64,000 bases of DNA from Candidatus Latescibacterota bacterium (GTDB lineage Bacteria; Latescibacterota; UBA2968; UBA8231). The position numbers were made by a program, and so were the translations under genes. The DNA lies in NCBI GenBank assembly GCA_965217585.1, contig OZ244561.1, positions 768,001 to 832,000 of the forward strand, in the 5' to 3' direction. The notes under the pieces are model-generated. The model saw only the letters and a program-made list of their open reading frames with translations. It ran no database searches and was not told the DNA's origin. Shown here piece by piece: positions 18,800 to 56,008 of this stretch (positions are counted from its first letter, which is position 1; every line of letters starts with the position of its first letter).

Positions 18800-20290
18800 C
18801 TATTCCGATTCCTCCAGCGCCCCGTCATAAGGCCCGGCCAGTGCCTCGCCTTGGGCTTTGATTTCTTCCAAGCGGCGCGACAGACTGCGCACGATATCCG
18901 GGTGCTGACCGTACAGATTCTGCCGCTCGGCGATGTCGTCTTTGAGGTTGAACAATTCCCCGGGAAAATTGTGGTCGCTATAGCCCCGCTCCGCCTTAAA
19001 CCAATCCGGCTCGCGGTTGTCGTCGCCGGAAGGAGCGTCGATAAAGACCCAGTCGTCTTGGCGCAGGGCAAAGCGGCCCGCACAACTGTGATGCACGGCT
19101 GAGCGGCGCACCGGCGCGTCTATCTGCCCCTGCAACAAGGGAAAGATGCTAATGCTGTCCTCGGCCGCTCCCAAGGGCAACTGAACCCCGGTCAACTGGG
19201 CACAAGTGGCCATAAAATCGCCCAACAGAGCGAGCTGGTCGCAGACCGATCCGGCCGGCGTAACGCCGGGCCAGCGGGCGACAAAGGGCACGCGGTGGCC
19301 GCCTTCCCAAGTGTCGCGCTTGGCACCGCGCAAATGGGCCATGCTGTAGTGGCCGAATTGGCGCACGTGATCGTAGCAACCGCCGGCCGCGGCTGGGCTG
19401 CACTCGGGGCCGTTGTCGCTGGTGAAGATGAGCAGCGTGTCGTCGGTCAGCCCCTGCTCGTCGAGCGCGGCCATGATTTCCCCGACCACCCAATCGACTT
19501 CGCAGACAAAATCGCCGTACAGACCCGCCCCACTGCGGCCGATGAAGTCCTGGTTGGGTACAATCGGCGTATGCGGTGAGGTCAGCGGCAAGTAGAGGAA
19601 AAAGGGATCGGAGCCAGCTTCGGCGATGTAGGCGCGGGCGCGGCGGACGAATTCGGGGACCATGTCCTCCAGTTTCCAGCCCGGCTTCATGGCTCCGGGC
19701 AGACCGAACATCTCCTCGGGCTTTTGCTCGGTCGGAGCCGCAGCCAGCCGGTCCTGCTCAAACCAAGTGTAGGGCGGGAAATTCGGCACATCGACGCCAA
19801 AGTAGTAGTCAAAGCCACACGCTAGGGGACCGCCGCCTATGGGTTGGCTGTAGTCGATATTGCGCTCTAGGGCTTGGCGCTGGTCGCGGTCGAGGCGGCC
19901 GATGGGAGCGTCTCCGCAGGCTGGTTTGCCGTCCTTGGTCGCCCATTCCCAGCCGAGGTGCCACTTGCCGATGCAGGCGGTGCGGTAGCCCTGCTGGCGC
20001 AGTAGCTTGGCCGCGGTGGGGCGGTCGGCTTCTATCAAGGGCGGATCCCAAGGCCACAGGACGCTGCTTTTGAGCGGAGTGCGCCAGCAATAGCGGCCGG
20101 TAAGCAGGGCGTAGCGGCTGGGCGAGCACACGCTGGAGGAGGCGTGAGCGTCGGTAAAGCGCATCCCTTGGGCGGCGAGGCGGTCGAGGTGAGGCGTGGG
20201 AATTTTGCAGCCGGGGTTGTTACATCCCATATCGCCGTATCCCATGTCGTCGGCGAGGATGTAGATGATATTGGGTTTTTGCCGGGGCAT
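18800..20290 (-). CDS. Sulfatase (formylglycine-dependent, arylsulfatase A-like)
   Basis: PNIIYILADDMGYGD, CSPSRYALLTGR (CxPxR), GKWHLG, FTSDNG and WEGGHRVP motifs. Confidence 0.95.
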   Translation of the reverse strand: MPRQKPNIIYILADDMGYGDMGCNNPGCKIPTPHLDRLAAQGMRFTDAHASSSVCSPSRYALLTGRYCWRTPLKSSVLWPWDPPLIEADRPTAAKLLRQQGYRTACIGKWHLGWEWATKDGKPACGDAPIGRLDRDQRQALERNIDYSQPIGGGPLACGFDYYFGVDVPNFPPYTWFEQDRLAAAPTEQKPEEMFGLPGAMKPGWKLEDMVPEFVRRARAYIAEAGSDPFFLYLPLTSPHTPIVPNQDFIGRSGAGLYGDFVCEVDWVVGEIMAALDEQGLTDDTLLIFTSDNGPECSPAAAGGCYDHVRQFGHYSMAHLRGAKRDTWEGGHRVPFVARWPGVTPAGSVCDQLALLGDFMATCAQLTGVQLPLGAAEDSISIFPLLQGQIDAPVRRSAVHHSCAGRFALRQDDWVFIDAPSGDDNREPDWFKAERGYSDHNFPGELFNLKDDIAERQNLYGQHPDIVRSLSRRLEEIKAQGEALAGPYDGALEESE

Positions 20291-20305
20291 GGCCGGTCCT
20301 TTCTT

Positions 20306-21424
20306 TCAGATGGAAATCGTTACTGATAAGCTAAATACCCGATCGACGGCACCGTTCGGTCCTGGAGCGCCGACCCAGCCGTTGGCGAGGCGGTCGTAGG
20401 CCACGATCAGCCCATCGTCTCCCCAGGGCATCAGCGCGGTGTAAGACGTACTCATGGCGGGGTCCTCTCCGGCCTGCGCGTTGCAGAAGGCGTCCGAAAA
20501 GCCCGCATTCGGCTCGACCAGTTGGTTGTGATGCACCCCCAGATTTACCCGCTCCCATTCTTCGCCCTGCCCATCGGCACAGAGCCAGAGGAACAGGCCC
20601 GGGCGGCCACCAGTCAGCACTATCGCTCCATTGCCCAATCGGGCTAGCCGTGGCTGCACCGAGGCCATCCCTTCCATGCGAACCGATGGCGACCACGTCC
20701 GGCCCTCATCCGCGCTGATGCTCTTGTGGAAGTCCCACCTACCGCCGACGCGATAGACGCACAGCAAATCGCCATTGTCCAGCCGCAGGGTGTTGGATTC
20801 GTTGGGGCCTTCGGGCGCGCCGGGCGCGGCATCCGGGCCGGCGACAATGCTGCGGTACGTCCACGCAAAGCCACCGTCGTCGCTGACTACGGCGAACGTG
20901 TTATAGCCTTCTTCCCCGTCGAATTTTCCGTACATCGTCGTCAACAGACTCCCATCCTTTAGGCGCAGGATGTTGCCGTTGTGCTGGAGCCGCAGCTCAT
21001 CCCCGTGGTAATCGGCGAGCGGGCGCGGAAAATCAAAGACCCGCACGTCCCGGGGTTCGACCGCAAGCGCACCATCAACCATCGTCAGGACGTTGCCCGG
21101 CGCGAAGCAATTTTGCCGGTCTCCCGGCGCTTGCGGCCATTGCTCGTAGGGCATCATCAACGTGCTCGACGAATCTCGGACGGAGGTGTGGCCGTACGAG
21201 TCGATGCGCTGATCCGGGTGCCAGCTACCACCGGCATCGTGGCTCACGAAAAGATCGGCTGGCCATTTCCCCTGCGCGACGTCAGCGGAGCGGATGCAGG
21301 CACAAACCAGCGCGTCGTCACCGACTCGGTGCAAGGACGGAAACCAAAAATGACCGGTGCCCTGGCCCACTTCGACCGGAGCACCTGCCCGGACGAGACC
21401 ATTTTGAAGCGGATAATCGATCAT
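20306..21424 (-). CDS. BNR/Asp-box sialidase-like beta-propeller
   Basis: Asp boxes SHDAGGSW, SDDGGFAW and SADEGRTW; also GPNES and STSYT. Confidence 0.8.
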   Translation of the reverse strand: MIDYPLQNGLVRAGAPVEVGQGTGHFWFPSLHRVGDDALVCACIRSADVAQGKWPADLFVSHDAGGSWHPDQRIDSYGHTSVRDSSSTLMMPYEQWPQAPGDRQNCFAPGNVLTMVDGALAVEPRDVRVFDFPRPLADYHGDELRLQHNGNILRLKDGSLLTTMYGKFDGEEGYNTFAVVSDDGGFAWTYRSIVAGPDAAPGAPEGPNESNTLRLDNGDLLCVYRVGGRWDFHKSISADEGRTWSPSVRMEGMASVQPRLARLGNGAIVLTGGRPGLFLWLCADGQGEEWERVNLGVHHNQLVEPNAGFSDAFCNAQAGEDPAMSTSYTALMPWGDDGLIVAYDRLANGWVGAPGPNGAVDRVFSLSVTISI

Positions 21425-21491
21425 AGCAGTTCCCTTTCTTCAATCCACCTTAGCGAACTACCTAGCCCGTCGTTCGATGAAAAGCATTCGC

Positions 21492-22247
21492 TCACTGTCC
21501 ATCGGCTACTGGCTCCGGTGGCACTGGTGCAATTTCGTGAACTACGGAGAAGGTGAAAGACGCGCTCGCCACTTCTTTGGGCCGGTCAAAAGCGTCCACC
21601 CGCAAGACCATGCCGTCGATCACAACGGTAATCGCTTGGACATCCTCGTGCAATGGGGCAAACGCCACCTTGCCGGTGTACTCTTCTCCTTTAAACACGA
21701 ACGTGTGCCGCCTGAACAAATCCTGCCGCACCAGTCCCAAGCGTTCCTGGTAGTAATAATCTTCATTGCCGCCCTTGCCGCGCCGCTCCATGTAGTAGCG
21801 CTCAAAACTGTTGTCCGCGTCGCGTTTGAGCACGGCCCAGTATGTGTATTCGCCGCCCCGGTCGGTACGCAATACCATCTTCGCCGGATCGACCATCACC
21901 TTGGGATAGCTCTGGTTGACCACCGTCATTTGGAAAATCGTAAAACGCGGCGGCGGATAGCCCCGGTCCAAGTCTCGGTCCTGCCCATAGGTAAAGGGAT
22001 TCAGATTAGGTTCGCGAAAAGTAAAGCGGGCGTATTCCTGATTTAAGCTTTGGTCGTCGAGATAGCGCAGCTTGAGGCGAAAGCCCTCCTGCTCGAAGAC
22101 CGTGGTACTGTCCTCCGGGTCGAAATAGTAAGCGGCCTCCTGCAAAAGAGCTTCCTCGGGAACCACGCCGATCTTGTAGCGCAGGTCGGGTGGGAAACGA
22201 ATGCAGCCAGCCGCCAAAAGCACCAAAAGGCCCACTCCCCACCGCAT
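21492..22247 (-). CDS. Hypothetical lipoprotein
   Basis: Lipobox MRWGVGLLVLLAAGC; TGATG overlap with the TPR gene. Confidence 0.75.
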   Translation of the reverse strand: MRWGVGLLVLLAAGCIRFPPDLRYKIGVVPEEALLQEAAYYFDPEDSTTVFEQEGFRLKLRYLDDQSLNQEYARFTFREPNLNPFTYGQDRDLDRGYPPPRFTIFQMTVVNQSYPKVMVDPAKMVLRTDRGGEYTYWAVLKRDADNSFERYYMERRGKGGNEDYYYQERLGLVRQDLFRRHTFVFKGEEYTGKVAFAPLHEDVQAITVVIDGMVLRVDAFDRPKEVASASFTFSVVHEIAPVPPEPVADGQ

Positions 22248-25200
22248 CACTCCACCACCTCCTCGCCGAAATACGTGCGTCCGATCTCGGCGCGGTTGCT
22301 GCGGGCAAACTCTAAGGCACGCCATTCTTTTTCTCTTCCTTCGAGAACTGTAACGGCCCGCTCGTAGGCTTTGGCCGCTTGACGCCAGTCGCCCAACTGA
22401 TGGTGGGAAACGCCGATATTGCAGCGTGCCGCGGCCTCGCTGGGGGTGTTGGGATAGCGCTCGATAACCTCCTGTAGCACGGCGATGGCCTGGGCAAATT
22501 CGCCGCGGTCGTAGAGCACCATGCCTTCGGTATAAAGCGAATCGGCCTCGATGTCGGCCAGATAGATCAGCACTCGGCGCGCCTGCAGGGCCTCCTCAGT
22601 TTCGGGGAAGCGCTCCATCACTTGGGTGTAGAGTTGGGTAGCCTTGGCGAACTTGCGGCCGTTGTAGTAATAATCGCCTAGGTGCAAAAGCCCTATATGA
22701 GCGCGTTCGTGCCCTGAGTAGTCGCGCGCCAAGCGCAGGAAAGATTCTTGCATGTCCTCAATGCGTTCCATCTCCAGATGGCACCAAGCTGCCCCGTACA
22801 GGGCTTCGGGCGCGTCCTTGCTGGCCGGCCAGTCGCCAACGACCCGCTCGTAGTATTCAAGGGCGTGCTCGTACTCCTTATCCCCGTAGTGCAGTTCCCC
22901 GATCAGCAACGCCGCCTCTGGTGCCTGCGGCTGATCGGGATACGCCGCGATCAATTCCTCAAAATGCGCCCGCGCTGCGGCCTGTTTGCCTTGGGCTTGG
23001 AGGCTATGTCCCAAGTAGAATAAGGCGGCGGCCCGCACCGGACGGCGCGGTTTTTGTTCCAAAGTAGTGCGGAAGGCCGTCGCCGCAGCCTCGTAGTCGC
23101 GCTGTCCCAAGGCCACGCTGCCCAGCTCAAAGTGGAGTTCGGCCGCCAGTTCCGGAGTCGACTCTAGCGCGAGCGCCTCTTCCAACACAGCCTGAGCTGC
23201 GGCCAGACTGTCCTGAGCCGACAGGGCCTTGCCCAGCAGGAGCCGCGCTGGCAAACCATAGACGCGATCCCGGTGTGCTAGCAGGGGGCGGAGTTGGGCT
23301 ATGGCTTGCCCGGCATTCCCCTGATCGAGGTAGAACTGCCCCAGCCCCAACAAGCCTTCGGCGCGGGTGGCTTCGTTTTCCAGCATGGAGCGATAGACCG
23401 GTTCCACCCGCGCGGTGTCCTCCAAGGCTTGGGCGCACAACCCCAAGGCCCGCAGCAGGATGCGCCGCTGCGCGTCGTCTAGGGCACCCTCCTCTAGGGC
23501 GGCGATCCACTCGGCCCATGCCTCTTCGTAGCGCTCTGTTTTGTACAGGCTCCACCCCAGACCAAAGCGCGCCGATGCCCGCATGGCATCCCCCAGATGC
23601 GGCAGGGCCTCGACCAACAGCGGCAACGCGCGGTCGTGTTCTCCGCGCCCCTGATACAGCAACCCCAATTGCGCTTTGAACTGGGCTTGCAAATCGGCGT
23701 CGGCCGCCGGGGCCAACTGCTGGGCAATCAGCTTTATGGCCTTATCGTTGTGCCCGTCCTGAACGTAAATCTGCGCCAACTCCATTTGCGCGTACCCGTA
23801 CTGGGGCTGCCCCCGGTCGATGGACTCCAGCATTGTACGCGCCTCCGCGACGCGCCCGGCCCGCCGGTGGCGATGCCCCAACTCCAGCGCGGCAAAGGCC
23901 CGCACTTCCTCCTCCTCGCATTGTTCCAAAATTTGTTCGTAAAGCGCATCGCGGTGCTCGTCGCGCAGCCGGGCAATCTGCAACAAGGCGCGGCAACCCA
24001 ACTCGGGATCAGCTTCCCCTGCCACTAGCCGCTCGAACTTTTCTAGTGCTGCGTCGGGGTCGTCCAACGCCTGATAGAGGTACCCCTGCCAAAACAGGGC
24101 CTCGGGCACCAAGTAGCTCTCCGCCTGTTCAAGCACTTGACCGTACTGGGCGAGAGCCTCTTTGAACAAAACCCGAGCACTATCCGGGGCCACATGCTCC
24201 TCGCCGAGGAAACGCAGGCATTCGGCTACGCGGAACACGGCTTCGTCCGTGGATACGCCGGCCTCGTCGGCAAACTCCCCGTGCGCCGTCAGGTAGAGCC
24301 GGTGCGACGCTAGCGCCTCCTGGTAGTGCCCTTCGTCAAAGAGCAGACTCATCAAGCCGGCCTGCATGCGGGCGCGGAACCCCGGCCGCTCGGCCTTTTC
24401 CGCAGCATAGCGATAGACCGCCAGACTGGCGTCCGCCCCTTGTGTCTCCTGGGCCAGCAGCGCCTGCCGCACCCAAGCCATTTCGGCGAGGTGGGGCTCT
24501 TGGGAGAAATCCCCACTGACCTTTTTGTACGCGGTGAGGGCCTCCTCGGGACGGCCTAGGGCCTTGAGCATATCGCCCCGCTTGATCCAGGCTTTGGCCG
24601 CCATGGAGCGGCGGCTCTGCCCTTCGCGCAAACCGGCCAGAGCCACGGCGGTCTTCTCCTCGTAGTTCATGCCCGCGGGATCGTAGGAGTCCGCCAGCAA
24701 CTCAAAAACGGCGAGGGCCTCCTCGTAGCGCGCCAGTTCTTCCAAAGCCAAGCCGGTCTGCAAGCGCGCCCGGTCGGCCCGAATCCCCTCGGGCTCTCCC
24801 TGCGTATAGGCGCGAAAGGCCGCCACCGCCTGCTCGTATTCCTTTAGACGAAAGAAGGCCCAGCCGAGGGTGTAGCGCGTGCGGCTGGCGTAGCGGCTGT
24901 GCGGAAACAATTCGAGCAGCATCTGTCCAGCCGCCGCGGCGTCGGCGTAATCCTCGGTTGCAAACAGGCAGTCCACCACCATGTACGCAGCCGTCTGGCG
25001 CAATTCAAACGCCTCCTCGTCGCGCAGGGCGACAAAACGTCCAGCCGCCTCTCGCAGCGCCGCGGTAGCCAGCCCGGTTAGGGAATCGGCCTCCACTGCG
25101 TTGGCCAGGGCCGCTTCCTTGTGCCACAACTGCGCCTGCTTGCGCGCCAAATTGGCCAGTTGGTAGCGCGCTGCCGCCTGCACTCCCACTCGGCGTTCAT

Positions 25201-25408
25201 CGACCGCCACGCGCACATCCGAGGCGCGCAGCAGCGCCCCGTCCGGCACGGCCAACACGCTTTCATAGATCTGCCGCGCCCCGGCGAAATCGCCGGTGGC
25301 CAACAGCCGCTGCGCCTGGGCAAAGCGCTTGCTCAGATCCTCTGGATTGGTCACTAGCTGACTGCTGGCCACCAAGCCGGCGAGCACGAGGGGAAGCCAT
25401 AGGGCCAT
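22247..25408 (-). CDS. Large periplasmic TPR protein (CpoB/BamD-like repeats)
   Basis: Signal peptide and many TPRs with xYP turns (LIAAYPDQPQAPEA, IERYPNTPSEAAA). Confidence 0.85.
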   Translation of the reverse strand: MALWLPLVLAGLVASSQLVTNPEDLSKRFAQAQRLLATGDFAGARQIYESVLAVPDGALLRASDVRVAVDERRVGVQAAARYQLANLARKQAQLWHKEAALANAVEADSLTGLATAALREAAGRFVALRDEEAFELRQTAAYMVVDCLFATEDYADAAAAGQMLLELFPHSRYASRTRYTLGWAFFRLKEYEQAVAAFRAYTQGEPEGIRADRARLQTGLALEELARYEEALAVFELLADSYDPAGMNYEEKTAVALAGLREGQSRRSMAAKAWIKRGDMLKALGRPEEALTAYKKVSGDFSQEPHLAEMAWVRQALLAQETQGADASLAVYRYAAEKAERPGFRARMQAGLMSLLFDEGHYQEALASHRLYLTAHGEFADEAGVSTDEAVFRVAECLRFLGEEHVAPDSARVLFKEALAQYGQVLEQAESYLVPEALFWQGYLYQALDDPDAALEKFERLVAGEADPELGCRALLQIARLRDEHRDALYEQILEQCEEEEVRAFAALELGHRHRRAGRVAEARTMLESIDRGQPQYGYAQMELAQIYVQDGHNDKAIKLIAQQLAPAADADLQAQFKAQLGLLYQGRGEHDRALPLLVEALPHLGDAMRASARFGLGWSLYKTERYEEAWAEWIAALEEGALDDAQRRILLRALGLCAQALEDTARVEPVYRSMLENEATRAEGLLGLGQFYLDQGNAGQAIAQLRPLLAHRDRVYGLPARLLLGKALSAQDSLAAAQAVLEEALALESTPELAAELHFELGSVALGQRDYEAAATAFRTTLEQKPRRPVRAAALFYLGHSLQAQGKQAAARAHFEELIAAYPDQPQAPEAALLIGELHYGDKEYEHALEYYERVVGDWPASKDAPEALYGAAWCHLEMERIEDMQESFLRLARDYSGHERAHIGLLHLGDYYYNGRKFAKATQLYTQVMERFPETEEALQARRVLIYLADIEADSLYTEGMVLYDRGEFAQAIAVLQEVIERYPNTPSEAAARCNIGVSHHQLGDWRQAAKAYERAVTVLEGREKEWRALEFARSNRAEIGRTYFGEEVVE

Positions 25409-29666: not shown

Positions 29667-29670
29667 CGCC

Positions 29671-29964: not shown

Positions 29965-29981
29965 GCTGACGCCCTCCCATC

Positions 29982-31313: not shown

Positions 31314-31335
31314 CGTCGGTTTGGATTTTTCTCGT

Positions 31336-34672: not shown

Positions 34673-34693
34673 GTCAGATTCAGATTCGTGCGT

Positions 34694-47161: not shown

Positions 47162-49246
47162 CTATTCGATTTTGACCATCTTGCGGGTACGCGTCTGATC
47201 ATCCACCTGCAACCGATACACATAGACCCCAGTGGCGACGGGTTGACCCTGCGCATCCCGGCCATCCCAAGTCAGCCGATGCTCGCCAGCGGGCAGCGGC
47301 CCCGTCCACACCTGGCGCATCGGCTGCCCCAGGACATTGTAGATGGTTAAGTCCACGTTCCTCGCTCCGGCGGGTACGACCAAGGGGATGGTCGTGGTGG
47401 GATTGAACGGATTGGGATAGTTGGCACCTAAAGCAAAGGCTGTTGGCGTGGCCGCCTCGGCCGCTATTGCTGTGGCCGGAGTGCCTTGGTTGGTCAAGAC
47501 GAAGACGCCGCCTTGGCCGCTGGCCGGATTCGTTCCCAGCACGACCAGATCGATGTCGCCATCGCCGGTGACATCGCCGGTGAGGACCTGATTGCCCTCG
47601 CCGGGCAGGGGGTAGTAGCCTTCGAAGACGGGTGCGCCGTCGCGCTGGCCGAGCCACACCAATAGAGCCGGACGACCGATGCTCAAGTTGCCAGCGACCA
47701 TAGCCACATCCAGCACGCCATCGCCGTTGAGGTCGCTGGCCGTGGCTGCGTGCGCCGGGAGCACCTTCCAATCGAGCAAGGAATGGCGTGCCACCACGCC
47801 GGAGGCGTCCAGACGCCACAGGGACAAGCCGTAGTAGTGGTTGCCGAAGAAGAAAAAACCTTTGGGGGAGTCGAGTAGGTCCACCATCCCATTGCCGTCG
47901 AGATCAGCCATCAGGTGCAGGGCGGAGGGATTGACCGCGGCCTCGAAAGAGCGCGGTGGTTCTGGGATGGCGGCCCACGGTCGGGTCAGTTGCCAAGGCC
48001 CCTGGGCCTGGTACCACAACAGGCTCGCAGCTTCGCCGAGGGGTTGCCCGGCGGGTAGGTAGGCAGGGAAATGCTCTCCGCTGTCGAGGATGAATTCCTC
48101 GCCGCGGACAAAGTCGTAGCCGTCGTTGATCCATAGAACCACTTTTCGGGACAACGCGTCGTACTCCCCGACCAACAGGTCCGTATCGCCGTCGCCGTCG
48201 CCATCGGCCAAGCCAACGAGCCAGACATCGAACAGTTGCAGGGAGGGTTCAAAGCCGTCGCCCCAGTTGTACCACACTTCGACGATTCCGTTCTCGTCAA
48301 CGACCAGATCTAGGAGTCCATCGTCGTCGAAGTCGTTTCCCCAGAGGTCCATGATTGGAAAGGAGTCAAAGGATGCGGTGGTTGAGAGAGTGACCTCTTG
48401 GGTGGGTTCAAAGCCGCCTAGCCCGTCGTTGGACGCCACCGTCCAGCCTAGTTGTCTTTCGCGGTCCACGAGGCGGTTCCAAGCCACCACGAGATCCGCA
48501 TCGCCATCGCCGTCTACGTCGCCCACCGCGCCTTGCGATGCTCGCCAATAGATTGGGGTGCCGATGCCCTTTCCAAGCGGAAAAAAGTCGGGGGCGGCGA
48601 ACAGCGTGCCGGGCGGCTCCAACTCCACACCGATATCCCTAGGCACCAATTCCCCCTGCGCCAACTCTTCGGCTCCTGTGAGCTGGATCCAGTCTATTTC
48701 TAGAAACTTTGGGTGGTTGTCCACGTCCTGCGAGTCCCGATATAACAGCATGTCTATAAAAAAATTAAAAAGAGTATCCTGCCAGGTGATCGCCCATTCT
48801 GTGTCTGCTTCTGCCAAGGCGCGTAGATCTACGGTGATGTCTTCCCATTCGATGGGATACGATTGCTCACGTCCCGTACTAAACACTCCTTTTGTGTCAG
48901 AGTCAGGGTGGCTCACGGCATTGGACCAAATCATCGAGAATTGTTCCTCAGTGGGGCTATGGTGTATGAGGCGCAGCCGTAGGGTGAGGCGGTCGAACAG
49001 GGCCGAGTCTTGCCCGATCAACGGTGAGCGCAATTGAACAGTGGGTCTGCGACCAGGCACGGGCGCAATGCGCCAGACGCCATCGACGACTTCGCTCTGT
49101 AGTGGTTCGAGACTGCCTCTTGTATTGCTATGAAAACCTTCCCGGGCGGTCCAGCCCCAAGTGGAGCCGTCGGCGAAATCCCACGTTAAGGCAAAGGCCC
49201 CGTGTGGAGCCGCCACCAGCAACATTGCAAAGAGAACGCGGCGCAT
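47162..49246 (-). CDS. FG-GAP + CTD paralogue (copy 5)
   Basis: Same architecture; very similar to copy 6 outside the loops. Confidence 0.88.
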   Translation of the reverse strand: MRRVLFAMLLVAAPHGAFALTWDFADGSTWGWTAREGFHSNTRGSLEPLQSEVVDGVWRIAPVPGRRPTVQLRSPLIGQDSALFDRLTLRLRLIHHSPTEEQFSMIWSNAVSHPDSDTKGVFSTGREQSYPIEWEDITVDLRALAEADTEWAITWQDTLFNFFIDMLLYRDSQDVDNHPKFLEIDWIQLTGAEELAQGELVPRDIGVELEPPGTLFAAPDFFPLGKGIGTPIYWRASQGAVGDVDGDGDADLVVAWNRLVDRERQLGWTVASNDGLGGFEPTQEVTLSTTASFDSFPIMDLWGNDFDDDGLLDLVVDENGIVEVWYNWGDGFEPSLQLFDVWLVGLADGDGDGDTDLLVGEYDALSRKVVLWINDGYDFVRGEEFILDSGEHFPAYLPAGQPLGEAASLLWYQAQGPWQLTRPWAAIPEPPRSFEAAVNPSALHLMADLDGNGMVDLLDSPKGFFFFGNHYYGLSLWRLDASGVVARHSLLDWKVLPAHAATASDLNGDGVLDVAMVAGNLSIGRPALLVWLGQRDGAPVFEGYYPLPGEGNQVLTGDVTGDGDIDLVVLGTNPASGQGGVFVLTNQGTPATAIAAEAATPTAFALGANYPNPFNPTTTIPLVVPAGARNVDLTIYNVLGQPMRQVWTGPLPAGEHRLTWDGRDAQGQPVATGVYVYRLQVDDQTRTRKMVKIE

Positions 49247-49306: not shown

Positions 49307-51412
49307 CTATTCGATTTTGACCATCTTGCGGGTGCGCGTCTGGTCGCCCACCTGCAACCGATACACATAGACCCCAGCGGCAACAGGTTGACCCTGCGCA
49401 TCCCGGCCATCCCAAGTCAGCCGATGCTCGCCAGCCGGCAGCGGCCCCGTCCACACTCGGCGCATCGGCTGCCCCAGGACATTGTAGATGGTTAAGTCCA
49501 CGTTTTTGGCTCCGGCGGGCACGGCCAAGGGGATGGTCGTGGCGGGATTGAACGGATTGGGATAGTTGGCTCCGAGGGCAAAGGTCGTGGGCGTGGCCGT
49601 CTCGACCGTCACGGCTGTGGCCGGGGTGCCTTGGTTGATCAAGACGAAGACGCCACCGAGGCCGCTGGCCGGATTCGTTCCCAGCACGACCAGATCGGTG
49701 TTGCCATCGCCGTTGACATCGCCGGTGAGCACCTGATTGCCCTCGCCTGACAGGGGGTAGTAGCCTTCGAGGACGGGTGCGCCGTTGCGCTGGCCGAGCC
49801 ACACCAATAGAGCCGGACGACCGATGCTCAAGTTGCCAGCGACCATAGCCACATCGAGCACGCCATCACCGTTGAGGTCGCTGGCGGTGGCTTCGTGCGC
49901 TATGAACGCCTTCCAGTCGAGCAAGGAATGGCGTGCCAACACGCCCGAGGCGTCCAGACGCCACAGAGCCAAGCCGTAGTAGTCGGTTTCACCGAACCTA
50001 TCTATGCTCTCAGGGGAGCCGAGTAGGTCCACCATCCCATTGCCGTCGAGATCAGCCAGTAGGTGCAGGGCATAGGGATTGACCCCGGCTTCGAAAGAGC
50101 GCGGTGGTTCTTGGCTGGCGGCCCACGGCCGGGTCAGTTGCCAAAAGTCTTGAGGCTCAAAGCAGCCCCCATTCCACAACAGGCTGGCGGCTTCGCCCAA
50201 GGGTTGGCCGTCGGGCAGATAGGGGCACAGCTTCTCTCTGTCGGGGGAGAATGTATCACTGCTGACAAAATCGTAGCCGTCGTTGCTCCACAAGGTCGCG
50301 TAATACGATTCGCCGTCATACCCCCCGACTAACAGGTCCACATCGCCGTCGCCGTCGCCATCGACCAAGCCAATGGGCCAGACGTCGAACAGTTGCAGAG
50401 CGGGATCAAAGCCGTCGCCCCAGTTGTACCACACTTCGACGATTCCTCTTTCGGCAACGACCAGATCTAGGAGTCCATCGCCGTCGAAGTCGCTTCCCCA
50501 GAGGTCCATGATTGGAAAGGAGTCAAAGGATGCGGTGGTTGAGAGAGTGACCTCTTGGGTGGGTTCAAAGCCGCCTAGCCCGTCGTTGGATGCCACCGTC
50601 CAGCCCAGTTGGCTTTCGCGGTCCACGAGGCGGTCCCAGAGCACCACGAGATCCGCATCGCCATCGCCGTCTACGTCGCCCACCGCACCTTGCGATGCTC
50701 GCCGATAGCTTGGGGTGCCGATGCCCTTTCCGAGCGGAAAAAAGTCGGGGGCGGCGAACAGCGTGCCGGGCGGCTCCAACTCCACACCGATATCCCTAGG
50801 CGACAATTCCCCCTGCGCCAACTCTTCGGCCCCGGTCAGCTGGATCCAGTCTATTTCTAAAAACTTTGGATGGTTATCCACGTCCTGCGAGTCCCGATAT
50901 AACACCATCTCTATATCAAAATTGAAGAGAGTATCCTGCCAGGTGATCTCCCATTCTGTGTCTGCTTCTGCCAAGGCGCGTAGATCTATGGTGATTTCTT
51001 CCCATTCGAGGGGATAGGATTGCCGACGTCCCGTACCAAATACTCTTTTTGTGCCAGAGACAGGGCGGCGTCTTTTCTCGGCATTGGACCAGTTCATCAC
51101 GAATAGTTCCTCGGTGGGGCTATGGTGTATGAGGCGTAGCCGTAGGGTGAGGCGGTCGAACAGGGCCGAGTCTTCCCCGATCAACGGTGAGCGCAATCGA
51201 ACGGTGGGCCTTCGACCGGGCACGGGTGCAATGCGCCAGACGCCATCGACGACTTCGCTCTGTAGTGGGTCTCTATTAATAAAAGTTACATTGCTATGAC
51301 CACTTTCCCGGGCGGTCCAGCCCCAGGTAGAGCCATCGTCGAAATCCCACGTTAGAGCAAAAGCCCCGTGTGGAGCCGCCAAGAAGCCAATAGTGAATAG
51401 CAAGTGGCGCAT
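49307..51412 (-). CDS. FG-GAP + CTD paralogue (copy 6, first in the array)
   Basis: Same architecture, ending ...RKMVKIE. Confidence 0.88.
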   Translation of the reverse strand: MRHLLFTIGFLAAPHGAFALTWDFDDGSTWGWTARESGHSNVTFINRDPLQSEVVDGVWRIAPVPGRRPTVRLRSPLIGEDSALFDRLTLRLRLIHHSPTEELFVMNWSNAEKRRRPVSGTKRVFGTGRRQSYPLEWEEITIDLRALAEADTEWEITWQDTLFNFDIEMVLYRDSQDVDNHPKFLEIDWIQLTGAEELAQGELSPRDIGVELEPPGTLFAAPDFFPLGKGIGTPSYRRASQGAVGDVDGDGDADLVVLWDRLVDRESQLGWTVASNDGLGGFEPTQEVTLSTTASFDSFPIMDLWGSDFDGDGLLDLVVAERGIVEVWYNWGDGFDPALQLFDVWPIGLVDGDGDGDVDLLVGGYDGESYYATLWSNDGYDFVSSDTFSPDREKLCPYLPDGQPLGEAASLLWNGGCFEPQDFWQLTRPWAASQEPPRSFEAGVNPYALHLLADLDGNGMVDLLGSPESIDRFGETDYYGLALWRLDASGVLARHSLLDWKAFIAHEATASDLNGDGVLDVAMVAGNLSIGRPALLVWLGQRNGAPVLEGYYPLSGEGNQVLTGDVNGDGNTDLVVLGTNPASGLGGVFVLINQGTPATAVTVETATPTTFALGANYPNPFNPATTIPLAVPAGAKNVDLTIYNVLGQPMRRVWTGPLPAGEHRLTWDGRDAQGQPVAAGVYVYRLQVGDQTRTRKMVKIE

Positions 51413-51521: not shown

Positions 51522-51551
51522 CGTAGGGGCGGTCCTCAAGCCGCCCCTACG
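51522..51551. repeat. GTAG-type REP-like hairpin
   Basis: CGTAGGGGCGG-TCCTCAAG-CCGCCCCTACG: 11-bp stem, no U-tract. Confidence 0.6.
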
Positions 51552-51563: not shown

Positions 51564-52436
51564 TTAACGGGTACCCTCTGAACGCAGCGCTTTGATCCGT
51601 CCCCACGACTGGGCTTCGACACTAGTAGCAGCAGGAAGCACCGGTCGCCAAGCAGGAGAGTGTCCACCTAAGCCGTTGGTCAGGTCGACCCAGTTGTCCC
51701 CGTCTGTATCAGCGGCCCAAATCTCAAACTGACCCATGAAATCGAGAAAACCAGAGAAGGCTATTCTCATGCCATCGGGCGACCAAGTAGGAAACGTTCG
51801 CCAATTTTCGTAGGGTTCGGTGTATATCAGTTTATTCTGGAGTGATTCAGGTAGGAGATAACCTGGGTGCATGTGATCACTGGCACTGGTGCGGATGTAG
51901 AAATTGACATGCTTATGGCCCCCTCCATCCCACAACGAGACGGTTGCTAGTAGGGTTCCGTCTGGAGAAACACCAGGGAGGAAGCGGCTATATACCTCTC
52001 TCCAGTCCACAGGCGACGCGCCACTGCCGTCCAGCGCCGTAACAAACGCATCAGGGCCGTCCCACTCGTCTGGAATCGGCAAAGTCATGACGGCGATATA
52101 GTAAATGTTACTCCCGTCTTCAGACCAAAAAAGCCTCGCTTTATCGACTGCATCGTCTGTCACCTGTTGCGGATTACTGCCGTCGGCATTCATCAACCAG
52201 ATTTCACCACTGGCAATATAGGCGATCTGCGTGCCATCTGGAGACCAAGCCGGGCTAGCGCACTCCCGGCCTTGGGTTAGGTTTATGGGATCGCTCCCAT
52301 CCGCATTCATAATCCACACGTCACCGTACCCCTCGCGGTCGGATATAAATGCGATTTTACCGCCGACTTGCCCCCAGCTAGCCACGGCCAGCCCCAGCGT
52401 TGCCAAGCAGACGATCAGTATCGACCGATAGTTCAT
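51564..52436 (-). CDS. Secreted TolB-like PD40 beta-propeller with a C-terminal TSVExxSWGxIK motif
   Basis: GKIAFISDREG, WIMNADGS, PAWSPDG repeats; tail AATSVEAQSWGRIKAL. Confidence 0.85.
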   Translation of the reverse strand: MNYRSILIVCLATLGLAVASWGQVGGKIAFISDREGYGDVWIMNADGSDPINLTQGRECASPAWSPDGTQIAYIASGEIWLMNADGSNPQQVTDDAVDKARLFWSEDGSNIYYIAVMTLPIPDEWDGPDAFVTALDGSGASPVDWREVYSRFLPGVSPDGTLLATVSLWDGGGHKHVNFYIRTSASDHMHPGYLLPESLQNKLIYTEPYENWRTFPTWSPDGMRIAFSGFLDFMGQFEIWAADTDGDNWVDLTNGLGGHSPAWRPVLPAATSVEAQSWGRIKALRSEGTR

Positions 52437-52599
52437 AACGCATCTCCTTTCAGATGGATGGATTGAGTAAGAAGAGTTCATACACGCATCTCCTTTCAGA
52501 TGGATGGATGGAATATTTGCCCCAAGAGTTGGGGGGTGGCTGCGAGATGATCTGTTGGCGTCGCCTGCACGCTTGGCAACAAGCATCAATTCTATATAT

Positions 52600-52615
52600 A
52601 GCATACTTCGTGCCA
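52600..52615 (-). promoter_or_regulatory. sigma54 (-24/-12) promoter
   Basis: Minus strand TGGCACGAAGTATGCT is GG-N10-GC with TGGCAC, and lies downstream of the bEBP gene. Confidence 0.8.
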
Positions 52616-52630
52616 CACAGCAGATCCCGC

Positions 52631-52665
52631 ACAAAAAAATCCTTTAGGATGGACCCTAAAGGATT
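52631..52665 (-). terminator. Probable intrinsic terminator of the bEBP transcript
   Basis: Minus strand AATCCTTTAGG-GTCCAT-CCTAAAGGATT runs into a T-tract. Confidence 0.55.
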
Positions 52666-52852: not shown

Positions 52853-55800
52853 TTAAGGCCCTTTCTTCGGTCGTCGCAACCCGTACACGCGCATGCGGGA
52901 ACGCAGTCGCTCTGGGTTCATGCCCAACAAGTGCGCCGCCCCCCGCTCTCCATAGATCTTCCCCTCGGCGGCTTGGAGCGCCTCCACGATTTGCTGTTTC
53001 TCGGCCTTGAACTCGGCTTCAACCGGAGCGGCGGCCGGCGGCTCAAGAGGCCCCTCCGTGGCCTCGTCTTCAGCAGCCAGCGGCACATCCTCCACCTGAA
53101 TGACCTCCCCTTGGCATAGCACCACTGCCCGCCGGATCAGATGCTCCAACTCGCGCACATTCCCCGGCCACGCGTACGCCTGCAAATGCTTCACCACTCC
53201 GTCGCCCAAAGCTGGCACGGGTCGCTGCAGACTTTGGGCATACCGGCGCGCAAAATCCGCCGCCAAGACCGGGATATCCTCTCGACGCTCCCGCAGCGGC
53301 GGCAGCTTCACCGGCCACACGCTCAAGCGGTAGAACAGATCTTCCCGGAACGTCCCCGCCCGGATCACCTGTTTCAGATCCTTGTTGGTCGCCGCAATCA
53401 CCCGCACATCCACCGGGATGGACTTCTCGCCGCCGACGCGCGTCAGGTAGCGATTCTCCAGAATGCGGAGCAGTGCCTGTTGGACTTCTAACGACAGATC
53501 GCCGATTTCATCGAGGAACAAGGTGCCGTAGTTAGCTCGTTCAAAACAGCCGATATGCCGCTTCACTGCGCCAGTAAAAGATCCTCGCTCGTGGCCAAAC
53601 AGCTCGCTCTCGATCAGCCCAGCGGGCAGGGAGCCGCAATTGAGCGCGACAAAGGGGTGCCCTCGGCGCTGGCTCAGGTTGTGGATCCTACGAGCGAGTA
53701 CGCCCTTGCCCACCCCAGTCTCGCCTAGCACCAGCATCGTCATATCGGTATCGGCCATCTGCTCGATCCCCTCTAAGAGCTCGGTCATGGCTGGGCTCTG
53801 ACTGAGAAAGTCCTGACCCGCATCCCTCAGCATGTGTTCTAAGCGCTGAAGGCGTACGCTCTTCTCGTCGGCAAACACCTGTACATCGAGAGTGGCGACT
53901 TCCGACATGAGGCCATCCCGATCTAAGGCCCGCACTTCAAAGCGGAATTGGCCAGCCGGTACGCGGTGGTACGACACTCTGTTGGAAGGAGTGAACGCAC
54001 TCCACTCTTCTGCCGGGTCGTAGCCGACGAGCCGATGGCTGTAGCGCATCTGCTCGGCCCCGCTCCGGAAGCTGAGGCCCTGGAAGTGAAACTGAATCTC
54101 GGGGGTGCTATCCGGGCAGGACACGGCTTGGGGCATCTCCAAGAGACGCCCCGCCACGACTTGGCGGATCACGATACCCGGAGGCGTATCGCCAGGCTGG
54201 TACGCAATCAGCCCCGCCCTCGTCCCAAACCACAACCGGCCCCGGCTATCGGGCAGGATGGCCTCGACGATATTCTCCAAGGTAGACTTGCCCAAACGGA
54301 TGCTCTGAAACCCCCGACCATCGTACTTCAGCACGCCCCCACCGCTCGTCCCAATCCACAGACATCCCTGCTGGGGATCAGCTACCAGAGCCAAGATGCT
54401 ATTGACGGAAAGATCGCCTTGGTCCGCCGTAAACCGACGCACCTGCTGAGCGCGGTAGTCAAAGGAGAAAAGGCCGTTGGCCGTCCCGACCCAAAGCGCA
54501 TCTTCATGTTCACACAATGCACTCACATAAGCGACGGTTTCTATCCCGGCCATGTCAGACGCGTGGAAATGGCCGTCTTTGTAATAGTACAGAGCCGGCG
54601 TTGTCCCATAGCTACCGATCCACAAGGTGCCTTCGCTATCCTGCAACGCGACTCGGCAATAATCAGGTCCCTGCTGCTCGGCTATAAAGCGGTCGTCTTC
54701 TATCCTGCCCAAGCATCCCCCGGAAGTGCCGACCCTTATGCGCCCTTCTCGGTCTGGGTACAGCATGATTTCTTCGGCGTTGTGGTCTTTTGCCACCTCG
54801 ATCACTTGGGCCTCTTCCCCCACCCCTTTAATTACTTTGTCCTCGGGGCTCCCGCGCCAGATTTGCCCCTCGCGGTCTATGGCCAACGCCGTGACCTTGT
54901 GCCCGGTCTCCACCGGGCGAATCCGGTCGTCTTCAAGACAGGCTAAGCCCCCCATCGTGCCGATCCAGATCCGGCCTTGGTGATCTTCGCTTAGCTGGTG
55001 GACCCCGCTATCGGGCAGACCGTCGGCTTCGGTGTATAGCTGGACGCTGACCGGATCGCAAAAAACCAGCCCGCCGCCCCAAAGCCCCACCCAGATATTT
55101 CCTTCGCGGTCCGCGTAGGTCAGCCGCGCATCCGAAAAGTGAATATCCGGCAAGCCAGCGGAAAAGGGATGCCACTCCTCTCCGTCGTACACTAGCACGC
55201 CCCGGCGAGTCATCCACAGCCAGCCTCTAGCGTCCAAACGCACATGGCGCGTGCCGTGATTTACGGCCTCCGTCCCTTCGATAGCTGCGTCCGCATTGAT
55301 CAGGTCGAGTTGTTGGCTATCTGGATCATAGCGGCCTATAACGGCTTCGGTGCCAATGTAGCGAAAGGCGATCCACAGCAGGCCGGAGGCGTCTTGGGCG
55401 AATTTCCACGGCCACTGCATCGCGCCGTTCCCCGCACTCATGCGCCGACCGTCTAGGCTAATGACCCCCCACTTCAGCGTCGCCAGCCACGTCGTACCCG
55501 TTGCGTCGGTGGCCATGTCGAACATCCGCCCTATGGGCTGACCCGCAATTTCTGTCACGCGCTCTACGCACCGCCCCTCGGCGAACCAGCCTATTCCTGC
55601 GCTGGTCAGAACCCGTATCGAGCCATCGGCTTGGGATTGCAGGCCCAATATGTCGTTGGAGGGCAGCCCGTGCTCGGTGGTGTACACCTGAAAGCCACGC
55701 TCGTCGTAAGCCGCCAGCCCACCGCCGAGCGTACCGAAGAGCAGTCGCCCGTCTTGGTCCTCGGCAATGGTCATTACCGTGAGAGTGGGTAGTCCATCCG

Positions 55801-56008
55801 ACAGGCCAAAGGTATCGAAATGCGCTCCGTCGAACCGGCTTACGCCGCCGTCGGCCGTGGCGATCCACAGCAGGCCGCGCTGATCTTGGTAGATGTCTTC
55901 CACCTGCATCCCGGCCAGCCCGTCGAAGACGGTGTACTGGTGCCCTAGGATGCGATCAAAGGGCTTTTTCTGTGTTGGGGGGGTTGCGGATTCCCTCGCG
56001 TCGGTCAT
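52853..56008 (-). CDS. sigma54-dependent enhancer-binding protein with N-terminal two-component-regulator propellers and a Y_Y_Y domain
   Basis: QDQRGLLWIAT..GGVSRFDG repeats; YHRVPAGQFRFEVRA (YYY); GETGVGKG, ESELFGHERGSFTGA, LFLDEIG, FREDLFYRL and WPGNVRELE; Fis-type HTH. Confidence 0.93.
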   Translation of the reverse strand: MTDARESATPPTQKKPFDRILGHQYTVFDGLAGMQVEDIYQDQRGLLWIATADGGVSRFDGAHFDTFGLSDGLPTLTVMTIAEDQDGRLLFGTLGGGLAAYDERGFQVYTTEHGLPSNDILGLQSQADGSIRVLTSAGIGWFAEGRCVERVTEIAGQPIGRMFDMATDATGTTWLATLKWGVISLDGRRMSAGNGAMQWPWKFAQDASGLLWIAFRYIGTEAVIGRYDPDSQQLDLINADAAIEGTEAVNHGTRHVRLDARGWLWMTRRGVLVYDGEEWHPFSAGLPDIHFSDARLTYADREGNIWVGLWGGGLVFCDPVSVQLYTEADGLPDSGVHQLSEDHQGRIWIGTMGGLACLEDDRIRPVETGHKVTALAIDREGQIWRGSPEDKVIKGVGEEAQVIEVAKDHNAEEIMLYPDREGRIRVGTSGGCLGRIEDDRFIAEQQGPDYCRVALQDSEGTLWIGSYGTTPALYYYKDGHFHASDMAGIETVAYVSALCEHEDALWVGTANGLFSFDYRAQQVRRFTADQGDLSVNSILALVADPQQGCLWIGTSGGGVLKYDGRGFQSIRLGKSTLENIVEAILPDSRGRLWFGTRAGLIAYQPGDTPPGIVIRQVVAGRLLEMPQAVSCPDSTPEIQFHFQGLSFRSGAEQMRYSHRLVGYDPAEEWSAFTPSNRVSYHRVPAGQFRFEVRALDRDGLMSEVATLDVQVFADEKSVRLQRLEHMLRDAGQDFLSQSPAMTELLEGIEQMADTDMTMLVLGETGVGKGVLARRIHNLSQRRGHPFVALNCGSLPAGLIESELFGHERGSFTGAVKRHIGCFERANYGTLFLDEIGDLSLEVQQALLRILENRYLTRVGGEKSIPVDVRVIAATNKDLKQVIRAGTFREDLFYRLSVWPVKLPPLRERREDIPVLAADFARRYAQSLQRPVPALGDGVVKHLQAYAWPGNVRELEHLIRRAVVLCQGEVIQVEDVPLAAEDEATEGPLEPPAAAPVEAEFKAEKQQIVEALQAAEGKIYGERGAAHLLGMNPERLRSRMRVYGLRRPKKGP

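Follow-up and report, generated by a model that had tools for sequence, protein, structure and literature searches.

A composite locus in a Latescibacterota bacterium: a one-component sigma-54 module, a decaying FG-GAP array and a multi-copy envelope cassette

The locus described here occupies positions 18800-56008 of a 64,000-nt stretch of DNA from a Candidatus Latescibacterota bacterium (assembly GCA_965217585.1, contig OZ244561.1, positions 768,001-832,000), referred to below as the window. It is a composite of four units: a regulatory unit built around a sigma-54 activator, a cargo array of secreted FG-GAP proteins, an envelope cassette, and enzymes. Judged by comparison with related genomes, the regulatory link is real in this clade, and the array and the cassette are separable units. 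Every Pfam-supported open reading frame (ORF) from 56008 down to 18800 lies on the minus strand, as a first-pass annotation of the same DNA had stated for the genes from 52436 down; as a control, none of the 12 plus-strand ORFs inside the region (159-418 aa) gave a Pfam match at E<=0.01. The gene order proposed in that annotation also stands for the PD40 gene, the array, the discoidin-FlgD_ig gene, the Asp-rich gene, the tetratricopeptide repeat (TPR) gene, the lipoprotein, BNR and sulfatase genes, though it omitted a transglutaminase/TPR remnant at 32991-34693.

Relatives of the locus were collected by scanning species-representative genomes with a profile of the cassette's signature protein, an 881-aa polypeptide. 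At least 651 stretches matched, at least 617 of which were confirmed, and the best 80 stretches yielded 72 loci, counted as 46 assemblies, which together with the window make up 73 sources. Family counts were obtained by calling ORFs in the 72 loci and the window and then clustering them. The loci kept are the most query-like and many of them end at contig ends; moreover, close genomes repeat the same arrangement, so that the counts are not independent. The view of each relative's locus extends up to 10 kb around. The window and loci L001-L007 constitute the type-A loci, while L072 is a non-orthologous cassette in another genome. An Rfam scan of the window found no families and a tRNA scan no tRNA, and the 11 inverted pairs found in a search of the window for invertible or shufflon-like elements look like chance matches.

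The sigma-54 regulatory unit

At the head of the cluster is the gene for a one-component sigma-54 activator (bacterial enhancer-binding protein, bEBP) of 1051 aa, at 52853-56008 on the minus strand. The protein matches Sigma54_activat (PF00158) at 226 bits against a cut-off of 20.2, Reg_prop at 115 bits and Y_Y_Y at 34 bits, along with an AAA lid, bearing out the propeller-sensor bEBP of the first-pass annotation. Its layout consists of double Reg_prop propellers, Y_Y_Y, the AAA+ sigma-54 domain and a C-terminal tail resembling a helix-turn-helix (HTH), and its loop, GSFTGA, is one substitution away from the GAFTGA consensus. The protein has no hydrophobic segment and therefore, with neither signal peptide nor transmembrane (TM) segment, is predicted to be cytoplasmic. 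The family is large, with 2842 clusters at E<=0.001 among 8000 candidates scored; the 120 members listed are 62-93% identical, all carry both PF07494 (Reg_prop) and PF00158, and several share long contigs.

About 80 nt upstream of the activator start codon, at 56088-56118 (-), lies a candidate -33/-7 promoter of the Bacteroidota type (TTTG...TAtcTTTG). The window contains 2 matches to this motif against 0.25 expected, and the copy at 56088-56118 is intergenic and correctly oriented. The motif is what we take to be the consensus of the FCB (Fibrobacterota-Chlorobiota-Bacteroidota) group, and a site in this position, should it function as a promoter, would fit separate, constitutive expression of the activator.

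Downstream of the activator gene are three exact palindromes, CGTATTtAATACG (core TCGTATTTAATACGA), at 52751-63, 52771-83 and 52792-804. Their spacing of 20 and 21 bp agrees with the first-pass description of phased sites, and they lie 143, 163 and 184 bp upstream of the GG of a -24/-12 element. When up to 2 mismatches are allowed the window holds 4 matches to the palindrome, compared with a mean of 1.06 in shuffled sequence, where 2 of 100 shuffles reached 4. The palindromes are presumed to be the activator's binding sites. Between them and the promoter, at 52638-52665 (-), is a hairpin of 12 pairs (centroid -14.5 kcal/mol, z -2.0) that leads into 7 consecutive U, likely the intrinsic terminator of the activator gene.

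The -24/-12 element itself, TGGCACGAAGTATGCT at 52600-52615 (-), has its GG at 52614-13 and its GC at 52602-01. It fits 10 of 11 specified positions of TGGCAC-N5-TTGCW, ten bases separating the -24 GG from the -12 GC, and transcription would be expected to start near 52590. That said, the motif alone is not significant, as a degenerate pattern with at most 1 mismatch gave 3 matches in the window against 5.64 expected, and the strict form TGGCAC-N5-TTGC gave none. The promoter proposed in the first-pass annotation is therefore credited on other grounds: because of its position after the palindromes and before the first gene, because the adjoining activator has a GSFTGA loop and no membrane segment, and because relatives L002 and L003 carry homologous modules.

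These relatives are informative. L002 contains the same 15-bp palindrome core (6385-6397) with additional half-sites on either side of it, placed 150 bp upstream of a perfect TGGCACGAAATTTGCA; the stretch from palindrome to promoter aligns with that of the window and is placed directly before a cassette running from DUF4159 to lipoprotein. Since the palindrome core and a perfect promoter precede the cassette there, activators of this type would seem to control the cassette in this clade. In L003, TGGTACGGAATGTGCA is found just after the orthologous activator gene, whose product is 63% identical to the window's; the only palindrome match in L003 has 3 mismatches and is at chance level.

The only other sites in the window that fit at least 10 of 11 positions, at 12730 (+), at 41680 (+, antisense to a gene) and at 32826 (-, within the N-terminal fragment of a pseudogene), were considered as internal sigma-54 promoters and rejected. 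No second sigma-54 site was found in an intergenic gap of the window, and in the gaps of the array and the cassette no sigma-70-like sites, no -33/-7 sites of the FCB type and no U-tract terminators were recognised. The rpoN gene is not among the window's genes. From its motifs and domains, the regulatory unit is a complete, classical one-component sigma-54 module.

The first gene to follow the promoter encodes a secreted PD40 protein, a TolB-like propeller by Pfam (51564-52481, -). It has two in-frame ATG codons, at 52481 and 52436 (45 nt apart), each with a GGAG ribosome-binding site. A 26-nt direct duplication of the ribosome-binding site and start region, at 52463-52509 (-), is the source of the two. 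Just after the PD40 stop codon is a GC-rich hairpin without a U tract (51522-51551, -; -23.7 kcal/mol, z -1.8), and a similar hairpin follows PD40 in L003. It is possible that the element acts as an attenuator or stabilises the RNA.

The FG-GAP array and its decay

The array consists of paralogues built from a leader, an N-domain of about 200 aa, an FG-GAP propeller and a C-terminal domain (CTD) of the kind associated with type IX secretion (T9SS). Seven such copies had been counted in the first pass. Five of these are intact, one is frameshifted, and one has no CTD and carries a deletion. Reading down from the PD40 gene, all on the minus strand, the array begins with two intact copies, of 701 aa (49307-51412; TIGR04183 37.6 bits) and 694 aa (47162-49246; 82.5% identical to the first). 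Following a TlpA-type gene come a copy with one frameshift near 44010-44030 (42673-44837) and the most divergent of the intact copies, 718 aa long and 36-39% identical to the others (40423-42579). After a gene for a DUF4159 protein (39029-40387), which has an N-terminal TM anchor, a Pro-rich linker and the DUF4159 domain, are two further intact copies of 710 aa (36850-38982) and 699 aa (34694-36793). Pairwise identities among the intact paralogues range from 36% to 82.5%.

The TlpA slot of the first-pass annotation is indeed occupied by a TlpA-type gene (family D18), at 44969-47101 (-), but its single 710-codon frame is broken by an in-frame TAG at 46219-46217, the TlpA gene and an upstream ORF of 294 aa being one frame split by that codon. 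The frame encodes a leader of the paralogue type, a domain without Pfam match, five repeats of about 32 aa and a thioredoxin fold of the TlpA/ResA kind (WCVPC). As the leader and the upstream 60 nt are the same as in the FG-GAP paralogues, the 5' end of a paralogue has apparently been grafted onto a TlpA gene. A second TlpA-type gene of the window, at 11478-12776, is merely 27% identical to the TlpA part of the one in the array.

Toward the cassette the array becomes more ragged. A remnant of a larger gene with a transglutaminase core and TPR_12 (32991-34693, -) lies in two frames, and about 0.9 kb and 2.1 kb that are present in L004 are absent here; the intact form in L003 is 829 aa long. Next comes the FG-GAP paralogue without CTD (31336-32923, -), in which an internal deletion of about 120 codons and a frame change, relative to L007, probably mark a pseudogene. 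This subtype is conserved in L004 and L007, and is intact in the latter. With a nonsense codon, a frameshift and deletions, the array of this genome is in decay. Assembly errors could account for the frameshift and the TAG, and less probably for the deletions. No lesions were seen from 31400 down to 18800.

All six CTD-bearing paralogues score above the TIGR04183 cut-off of 23 bits (34.6-39.7 bits) and have the YPNPFN...GVY tails described at the outset. Pfam files these CTDs as FlgD_ig; PF18962 matches one of the six, below its cut-off (22.5 against 27 bits). Leaders such as MRHLLFTIGFLAAPHGAFA/LTWDF are, by inspection, candidate Sec signal peptides, and neither the N-domain nor the N-terminal part of the TlpA fusion has a Pfam match at E<=1. 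The family, which is arranged in tandem arrays, numbers 1219 or more clusters at E<=0.001; the best 120 of these share no less than 70% identity with the query across 92% or more of its length, and go by the source names 'FG-GAP-like repeat-containing' or 'VCBS repeat-containing' protein. With 125 sequences aligned, the variability falls into patches (residues 41-60, 101-140, 221-240, 281-300, 361-400 and 461-480), with the leader, two core motifs and the CTD conserved, which agrees with the first-pass picture of a diversified family of secreted-type proteins. Two of the array's paralogues have closer relatives outside the array (99.4% and 93.6%) than within it, and the copies would therefore be older than this genome.

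The envelope cassette and the enzymes

The cassette comprises, in order, genes for a DUF4159 protein, a 97-aa protein, a discoidin-CTD protein, the 881-aa protein, a TPR protein and a lipoprotein. All lie on the minus strand, and from DUF4159 to lipoprotein they overlap or sit at most 17 nt apart. The first gene (29982-31400) encodes a TM anchor, a Pro-rich linker and a periplasmic domain, a predicted topology like that of TonB or TolA. It is the second DUF4159 gene of the region, 79% identical to the one within the array, where the first-pass annotation had placed the family. Against the PDB, DUF4159 gave weak matches only (E 0.094). The 97-aa protein (29671-29964), which is 57-91% identical in 6 orthologous loci, belongs to no known family. 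It had been called a STAS protein, a designation that was rejected: Pfam gave no match at E<=1, NCBIfam none, and a profile search of the PDB a single match, to GCN4, at E=1.

Next is a secreted discoidin (F5/8 type C) protein with a C-terminal domain of the FlgD_ig type (28023-29678; FlgD_ig 29.5 bits). The domain is 35% identical to that of the paralogues over 77 aa (E 6e-14) and matches the CTD of PorU in the PDB (6za2, E 0.0012). The signature gene of the cassette, at 25408-28053, encodes the 881-aa secreted, Asp-rich protein, which falls into no family. It has a leader and lacks both a TM helix and cysteine, and its 22 amphipathic beta segments compare with 9.3+-2.8 in shuffles (maximum 18). 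On this indirect evidence, along with weak SlpA_C matches and an Atlas lead to DUF6029 (both described below), the protein is presumed to be a large outer-membrane beta-barrel. Within a conserved Asp-rich stretch, at residues ~500-600, are two loops like those of EF-hands or dockerins, DKNANGVPDFEE and DLNNNGVIDERE, on which the Pfam models for dockerin, TSP3 and EF-hand have no match. The family profile found nothing in the PDB, and SlpA_C was set aside as a family assignment, as it matches 3 of 21 members weakly and below cut-off (best E 0.00031).

The two remaining genes encode a secreted TPR protein of 1053 aa (22247-25408) and a lipoprotein of no known family with the lipobox LLAAGC (21492-22250). 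The TPR protein is made up of repeated modules like those of YbgF/CpoB and BamD, and TIGR02795 (YbgF) matches it in 5 stretches at 201 bits against a cut-off of 90.

Beyond the lipoprotein the cluster closes with a BNR/sialidase-like protein (20306-21424, -; 93% identical in L007) and a sulfatase with a CSPSR motif (18800-20290, -; 97% identical in L007), neither of which has a signal peptide. Just after the sulfatase stop codon is a perfect 16-bp palindromic hairpin (18750-18784, -; -17.3 kcal/mol, z -8.2). None of 200 shuffles folds as well, and the hairpin is likely the end of a transcription unit.

The cassette in related genomes

A search with the 881-aa protein found 64 homologues, and those with names are mostly proteins from metagenome-assembled genomes (MAGs) of Latescibacterota, several on the same long contig. 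Of 1.84 billion representative clusters, profile A1, made from 21 members of the family, picked up 1123 at E<=0.001; at the stricter limits of 1e-10 and 1e-30 the numbers were 774 and 359. Nearly all of the 72 loci are titled Latescibacterota, while the titles of a few name Gemmatimonadota, Handelsmanbacteria, Planctomycetota or Zipacnadia, and several cassettes can be found in a single genome. The cassette is thus a multi-copy Latescibacterota unit. The envelope module of the first-pass annotation does follow the array on the same strand, in overlapping or near-abutting genes, but it is not the locus's own.

Some parts of the cassette are more constant than others. The 881-aa protein occurs in all 73 sources (126 copies) and the discoidin/CTD protein in 60 (103 copies), followed by the TPR protein in 40, the lipoprotein in 34, and DUF4159 and a SurA-like peptidyl-prolyl isomerase (PPIase) in 26 each. 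A small protein resembling PorV/PorQ is present in 17 sources, DUF6785/6784 in 15 (including the window, at 56165-58159), and ExbB and ExbD in 8 each. In a tree that covers the 120 copies with a length of 750 aa or more and leaves out 6 shorter ones, every synteny type is one clade (SH-aLRT 95-100) and the tandem positions form subclades of their own. Because the clades match synteny types, the cassette types would be old paralogous lineages, several to a genome.

Among the type-A loci the order from DUF4159 to lipoprotein is conserved, although in L006 a contig end cuts off the upstream part, leaving discoidin-CTD to lipoprotein visible. What lies upstream of the cassette varies. FG-GAP paralogues occupy this position in L001, L002 and L007, and in L004 the CTD-less subtype is alone; in L003 and L005 their place is taken by transglutaminase, TPR and glycosyltransferase genes. 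The activator of L003 is downstream of the lipoprotein, between PD40 genes. It is here that the single new system of the first-pass annotation comes apart, for relatives seldom keep its pieces together (the counts are given below) and L002 and L003 are arranged differently. That annotation had named a lack of conserved linkage between array, bEBP and core cluster as evidence against its view, and on that score the relatives speak in part against it.

The 17 loci with the PorV/PorQ-like small protein have it between the CTD cargo gene and the barrel, in what are type-B cassettes. In L017, for example, this protein (9053-9913, 286 aa) resembles PorV/PorQ (45.7 bits, cut-off 90), PorP/SprF and FadL, in each case below threshold. 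Such genes are the sole ones seen that resemble T9SS components, and the window has none of the core genes SprA/Sov, PorK-N, PorV or PorU. Aligned as a candidate relative of the 881-aa profile, the L017 protein proved unrelated (hhalign probability 0.3). Cargo of sister cassettes exceeds the cut-off of 27 bits for CHU_C, the type-B CTD, in L044 (35.2 bits), L053 (41.9) and L072 (30.5-33.9). At the start of L072 is a paralogue fragment that shares 80% identity with the 701-aa copy, and then come three CTD proteins of the CHU_C type, two barrels, a sulfatase, a major facilitator superfamily (MFS) transporter and a formylglycine-generating enzyme (FGE).

L007 is the closest relative by its flanks, with synonymous divergence (dS) of 0.32 for the sulfatase and 0.31 for BNR, yet in the cassette dS rises to 1.10 for the TPR gene, 1.04 for discoidin and 0.75 for the 881-aa gene. 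Window 18800-31400 is accordingly a mosaic against L007 6630-19173, the sulfatase, BNR and 97-aa genes all falling at dS 0.31-0.39; dN/dS is 0.05-0.29 for all genes. The window's barrel falls outside a tight cluster that six orthologues, L007 among them, make in the tree, and a barrel 95% identical to it exists elsewhere (P0001). Together these observations suggest that whole cassette alleles have been exchanged between close genomes.

Comparison with known systems

The component classes of the locus, that is sigma-54 activators, FG-GAP/T9SS-CTD proteins, TPR proteins and sulfatases, are known or already annotated. The nearest counterpart that has been worked out is the set of modules built on PorP (SprF) and PorE. 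According to PMC9143113, the PorP barrel binds cargo with a type-B CTD, the PorE lipoprotein, whose first parts are TPR, lipoprotein and PD40 propeller, links that barrel with the cell wall, and Flavobacterium johnsoniae has six porP-like genes adjoining porE-like genes. Set against these modules, the cassette likewise has the gene for a CTD-tagged surface protein adjoining the gene for a presumed outer-membrane barrel, a periplasmic TPR and propeller lipoprotein component and several modules per genome, and the cargo of its sisters passes the CHU_C cut-off. Unlike PorP, the barrel here belongs to an unrelated 881-aa Asp-rich family; unlike in PorE, the TPR, lipoprotein and PD40 parts are separate genes and OmpA_C is absent; and the window's cargo scores with FlgD_ig and TIGR04183 rather than CHU_C.

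Reg_prop and Y_Y_Y form the sensor fold of the hybrid two-component system (HTCS) regulators of Bacteroides. The locus shares with the polysaccharide utilization loci (PULs) of this genus an expanded Reg_prop/Y_Y_Y regulator family, many paralogous loci per genome, and a regulator adjoining outer-membrane or surface-binding genes and a sulfatase/BNR pair. Bacteroides PULs have HTCS regulators, according to PMC11253607. The regulator here differs in having a sigma-54 AAA+ output and no TM, kinase, receiver or AraC domain, and no gene of the region matches Plug, TonB_dep_Rec, SusC or SusD, unlike in a PUL.

One-component sigma-54 activators of the XylR, DmpR, NorR and PrpR type offer a parallel for the regulatory unit. 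As in these, the sensor is fused directly to the AAA+ sigma-54 domain and HTH, and repeated upstream sites are placed 140-185 bp from a -24/-12 promoter. In contrast, the sensor here combines a double Reg_prop propeller and Y_Y_Y, the loop reads GSFTGA and not GAFTGA, and a terminator-like hairpin separates the binding sites from the promoter. The cargo, for its part, agrees in domain content and naming with proteins for which public MAGs already carry annotation, the FG-GAP/VCBS repeat proteins bearing a T9SS type A sorting domain, but is set apart by the conserved 200-aa N-domain without Pfam match, the tandem arrays and the very large size of the family. Finally, the YbgF-like TPR modules, the PD40 propeller and the ExbB/ExbD of sister cassettes recall Tol-Pal, yet the window has no Pal/OmpA_C or TolQRA, and TolB (TIGR02800) reaches 76.7 bits with a cut-off of 343. 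As membership in the T9SS anchoring modules, PULs and Tol-Pal fails on defining features examined here, the locus is best said to work like such systems and not to be one of them.

Function of the locus

Gene content, motifs, family sizes and synteny, as observed in the window and its relatives, lead us to favour, tentatively, an inducible surface-display and glycan-capture locus that resembles in its working the T9SS type-B-CTD/PorP/PorE modules or a PUL. The activator with its Reg_prop/Y_Y_Y sensor would bind the three phased palindromes and fire the -24/-12 promoter. Transcription may then extend through PD40 and the clade-specific, partly decayed array of secreted FG-GAP propellers with T9SS-type CTDs. 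The cassette would form an outer-membrane complex that holds the discoidin and FG-GAP CTD proteins, presumably exposed on the surface, where their binding partners might be sulfated or sialylated glycans. The cytoplasmic sulfatase and BNR protein would finish the breakdown products, and these, as the probable inducing ligand sensed by the activator, would induce the locus. The link to glycans comes from the sulfatase and BNR genes, last in the cluster, from L072, which again pairs an FG-GAP/CTD paralogue, CTD proteins and barrels with a sulfatase, an MFS transporter and FGE, and from the Reg_prop/Y_Y_Y sensor, a type shared with the HTCS regulators of PULs.

A number of points weigh against display and capture as the work of one coherent locus. 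FG-GAP paralogues accompany the cassette in 6 of the 73 sources, and the activator does so in 2 (the window and L003), the latter figure being a lower bound because 10-kb flanks cannot show an activator beyond a long array. A hairpin stands directly after the PD40 gene, and the array, with its TAG, its frameshift and two deletion remnants, carries lesions that would be polar in a single operon and so argue against one. The array of L002 is upstream of the promoter, making array and cassette separate transcription units there. Other points concern the likeness to T9SS modules and PULs. The 881-aa protein matches no PorP, PorV or TonB-receptor model and has no NCBIfam match; the window's discoidin protein has no CHU_C match, its cassette no PorP- or PorV-like gene, and the region no OmpA_C peptidoglycan-binding domain. 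The sensor is cytoplasmic by prediction, unlike those of the HTCS regulators. Moreover, FlgD_ig is not necessarily a sorting signal here, since it also ends two inner-membrane BlaR1-ExbD proteins of the window.

Several of these points speak for the alternative in which the sigma-54 promoter serves PD40 alone, perhaps with the first paralogues, and the array, the cassette and the sulfatase pair are same-strand neighbours expressed separately. The hairpin after PD40 is conserved in L003, where the unit of activator, promoter and PD40 is on the other side of the cassette; L002 has palindromes and a promoter of its own directly before the cassette; the activator's rarity beside the cassette and the polar lesions point the same way; and the promoter types searched may not be those of this phylum, in which case internal promoters can be missed. 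On the other hand, the gaps of the array are short (21-151 nt) and hold no recognisable promoter or U-tract terminator, the conserved 60 nt upstream of the paralogues hold nothing but a ribosome-binding site, and in L002 the same type of activator clearly targets the cassette. On balance we regard a set of independent units as rather unlikely.

The favoured display-and-capture reading can also be set beside one in which the locus is a PUL-like importer. The 881-aa barrel would then be a SusC-like transporter energised by ExbB/ExbD and the TonB-like DUF4159 protein, the discoidin and FG-GAP proteins would bind glycans at the surface, and DUF6785/6784 or another carrier would take the products across the inner membrane. 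The ExbB and ExbD genes of 8 cassette loci each are in keeping with this, as are the TM anchor, Pro-rich linker and periplasmic domain of DUF4159, the DUF6785/6784 genes adjacent in 15 sources, a MalK-like ABC ATPase in type-F loci and the MFS transporter of L072. A sulfatase, BNR protein and sensor that are all cytoplasmic would imply import. There is also a lead, and a lead only, from the Atlas, where two 881-aa homologues fall in unnamed clusters and the nearest named one is DUF6029, 'TonB-dependent receptor-like beta-barrel', with a score of 0.89, which is under 0.9 and at a level often reached by shuffled proteins. Telling in the other direction are the missing Plug, TonB_dep_Rec and SusD matches in the region, the lack of an ExbB or ExbD gene in the window's cassette, and the giant TPR protein and CTD protein at nearly every barrel, which are not PUL features. 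Import as the main role is doubtful, though anchoring and import are not mutually exclusive.

A broader proposal is that the 881-aa cassette represents an undescribed class of Latescibacterota outer-membrane machine, a partner barrel for CTD-tagged binding proteins and a third 'PUL-like' paradigm. Such a barrel would receive, hold or import through CTD-tagged proteins, in the role that PorP/PorE or SusC/D play in Bacteroidota. The cassette, often with ExbBD, PPIase and DUF6785, would bring its own cargo with each copy and sometimes its own Reg_prop sigma-54 activator. As it stands this is speculative, and we think it unlikely in so strong a form.

Least probable by far is a trans-envelope machine in the manner of Tol-Pal or Glt/Nfs that would serve to tether the envelope or to move the cell on surfaces, assembled from PD40 (TolB-like), the TPR protein (YbgF/GltD-like), barrels, the lipoprotein, a TolA/TonB-like anchor and integrin-like adhesins: the five YbgF stretches of the TPR protein, the partial TolB matches of PD40, ExbB/TolQ and ExbD/TolR in sister cassettes and the topology of DUF4159 would suit it, but TolB falls far below its cut-off, Pal/OmpA_C, TolQ, TolR and TolA are absent from the window, and several cassette types per genome with differing lectin-like cargo fit substrate-specific modules better than a housekeeping machine.

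Flanking genes

Directly downstream of the sulfatase terminator, at 17013-18717 (-), are fragments of an IS630-type transposase (DDE_3, HTH_33/23/32) and of a DUF4143 gene, which mark the boundary of the cluster. At the other end, divergent from the activator gene, is a polytopic membrane protein with DUF6785 (396 bits) and DUF6784 (113 bits) at 56165-58159 (+), with about 12 hydrophobic segments. Close to it is a fused MFS/spermidine-synthase-like protein at 61184-64000 (-). In L054, L058 and L061 the two are neighbours next to cassettes of other types, and the family of the synthase-like protein occurs in 5 of the 73 sources. Both may be further parts of the same envelope neighbourhood.

The remaining flanks (58163-61119, 7048-7809 and 4375-5271, all -) encode a second BNR protein, three PhyH-type dioxygenases and a DUF6807 protein, and an RND efflux set (OEP, HlyD, AcrB) is found at 1-4684. 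The two BlaR1(M56)-ExbD fusions that end in FlgD_ig are at 8433-10736 and 12746-14695 (+), one with a TIGR04183 score of 22.0 bits, under the cut-off, and the TlpA-type gene at 11478-12776 sits between them. In L007 a BlaR1-ExbD/BlaI pair adjoins the sulfatase.

Implications

Among open-access papers and preprints, none was found that describes the 881-aa cassette as a recurrent unit or the way it is paired with CTD lectins, that treats the expanded Reg_prop/Y_Y_Y-sigma-54 family or a palindrome tying it to the cassette, or that links Latescibacter with type IX secretion/T9SS or with FG-GAP. In the same literature DUF6785, DUF6784 and PF20581 were not found, and DUF4159 was found solely in the Pfam database paper. 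The accessible sections of PMC7081726 make no mention of TonB, sigma factors, the outer membrane or adhesins.

The Latescibacterota are uncultured, and their surface biology is inferred from genomes alone. Counting loci of this kind as single 'systems' overstates their coherence, as the array turns over and cassette alleles differ far more than their flanks between close relatives. The barrel and the lipoprotein of the cassette carry no family annotation, making them a good target for structure prediction, metatranscriptomics and metaproteomics. If the favoured reading is true, the palindrome TCGTATTTAATACGA would be a concrete, searchable handle on a regulon in complete genomes, and the Reg_prop sigma-54 activators, the FG-GAP/CTD proteins and the 881-aa cassettes would share one logic of inducible surface capture.

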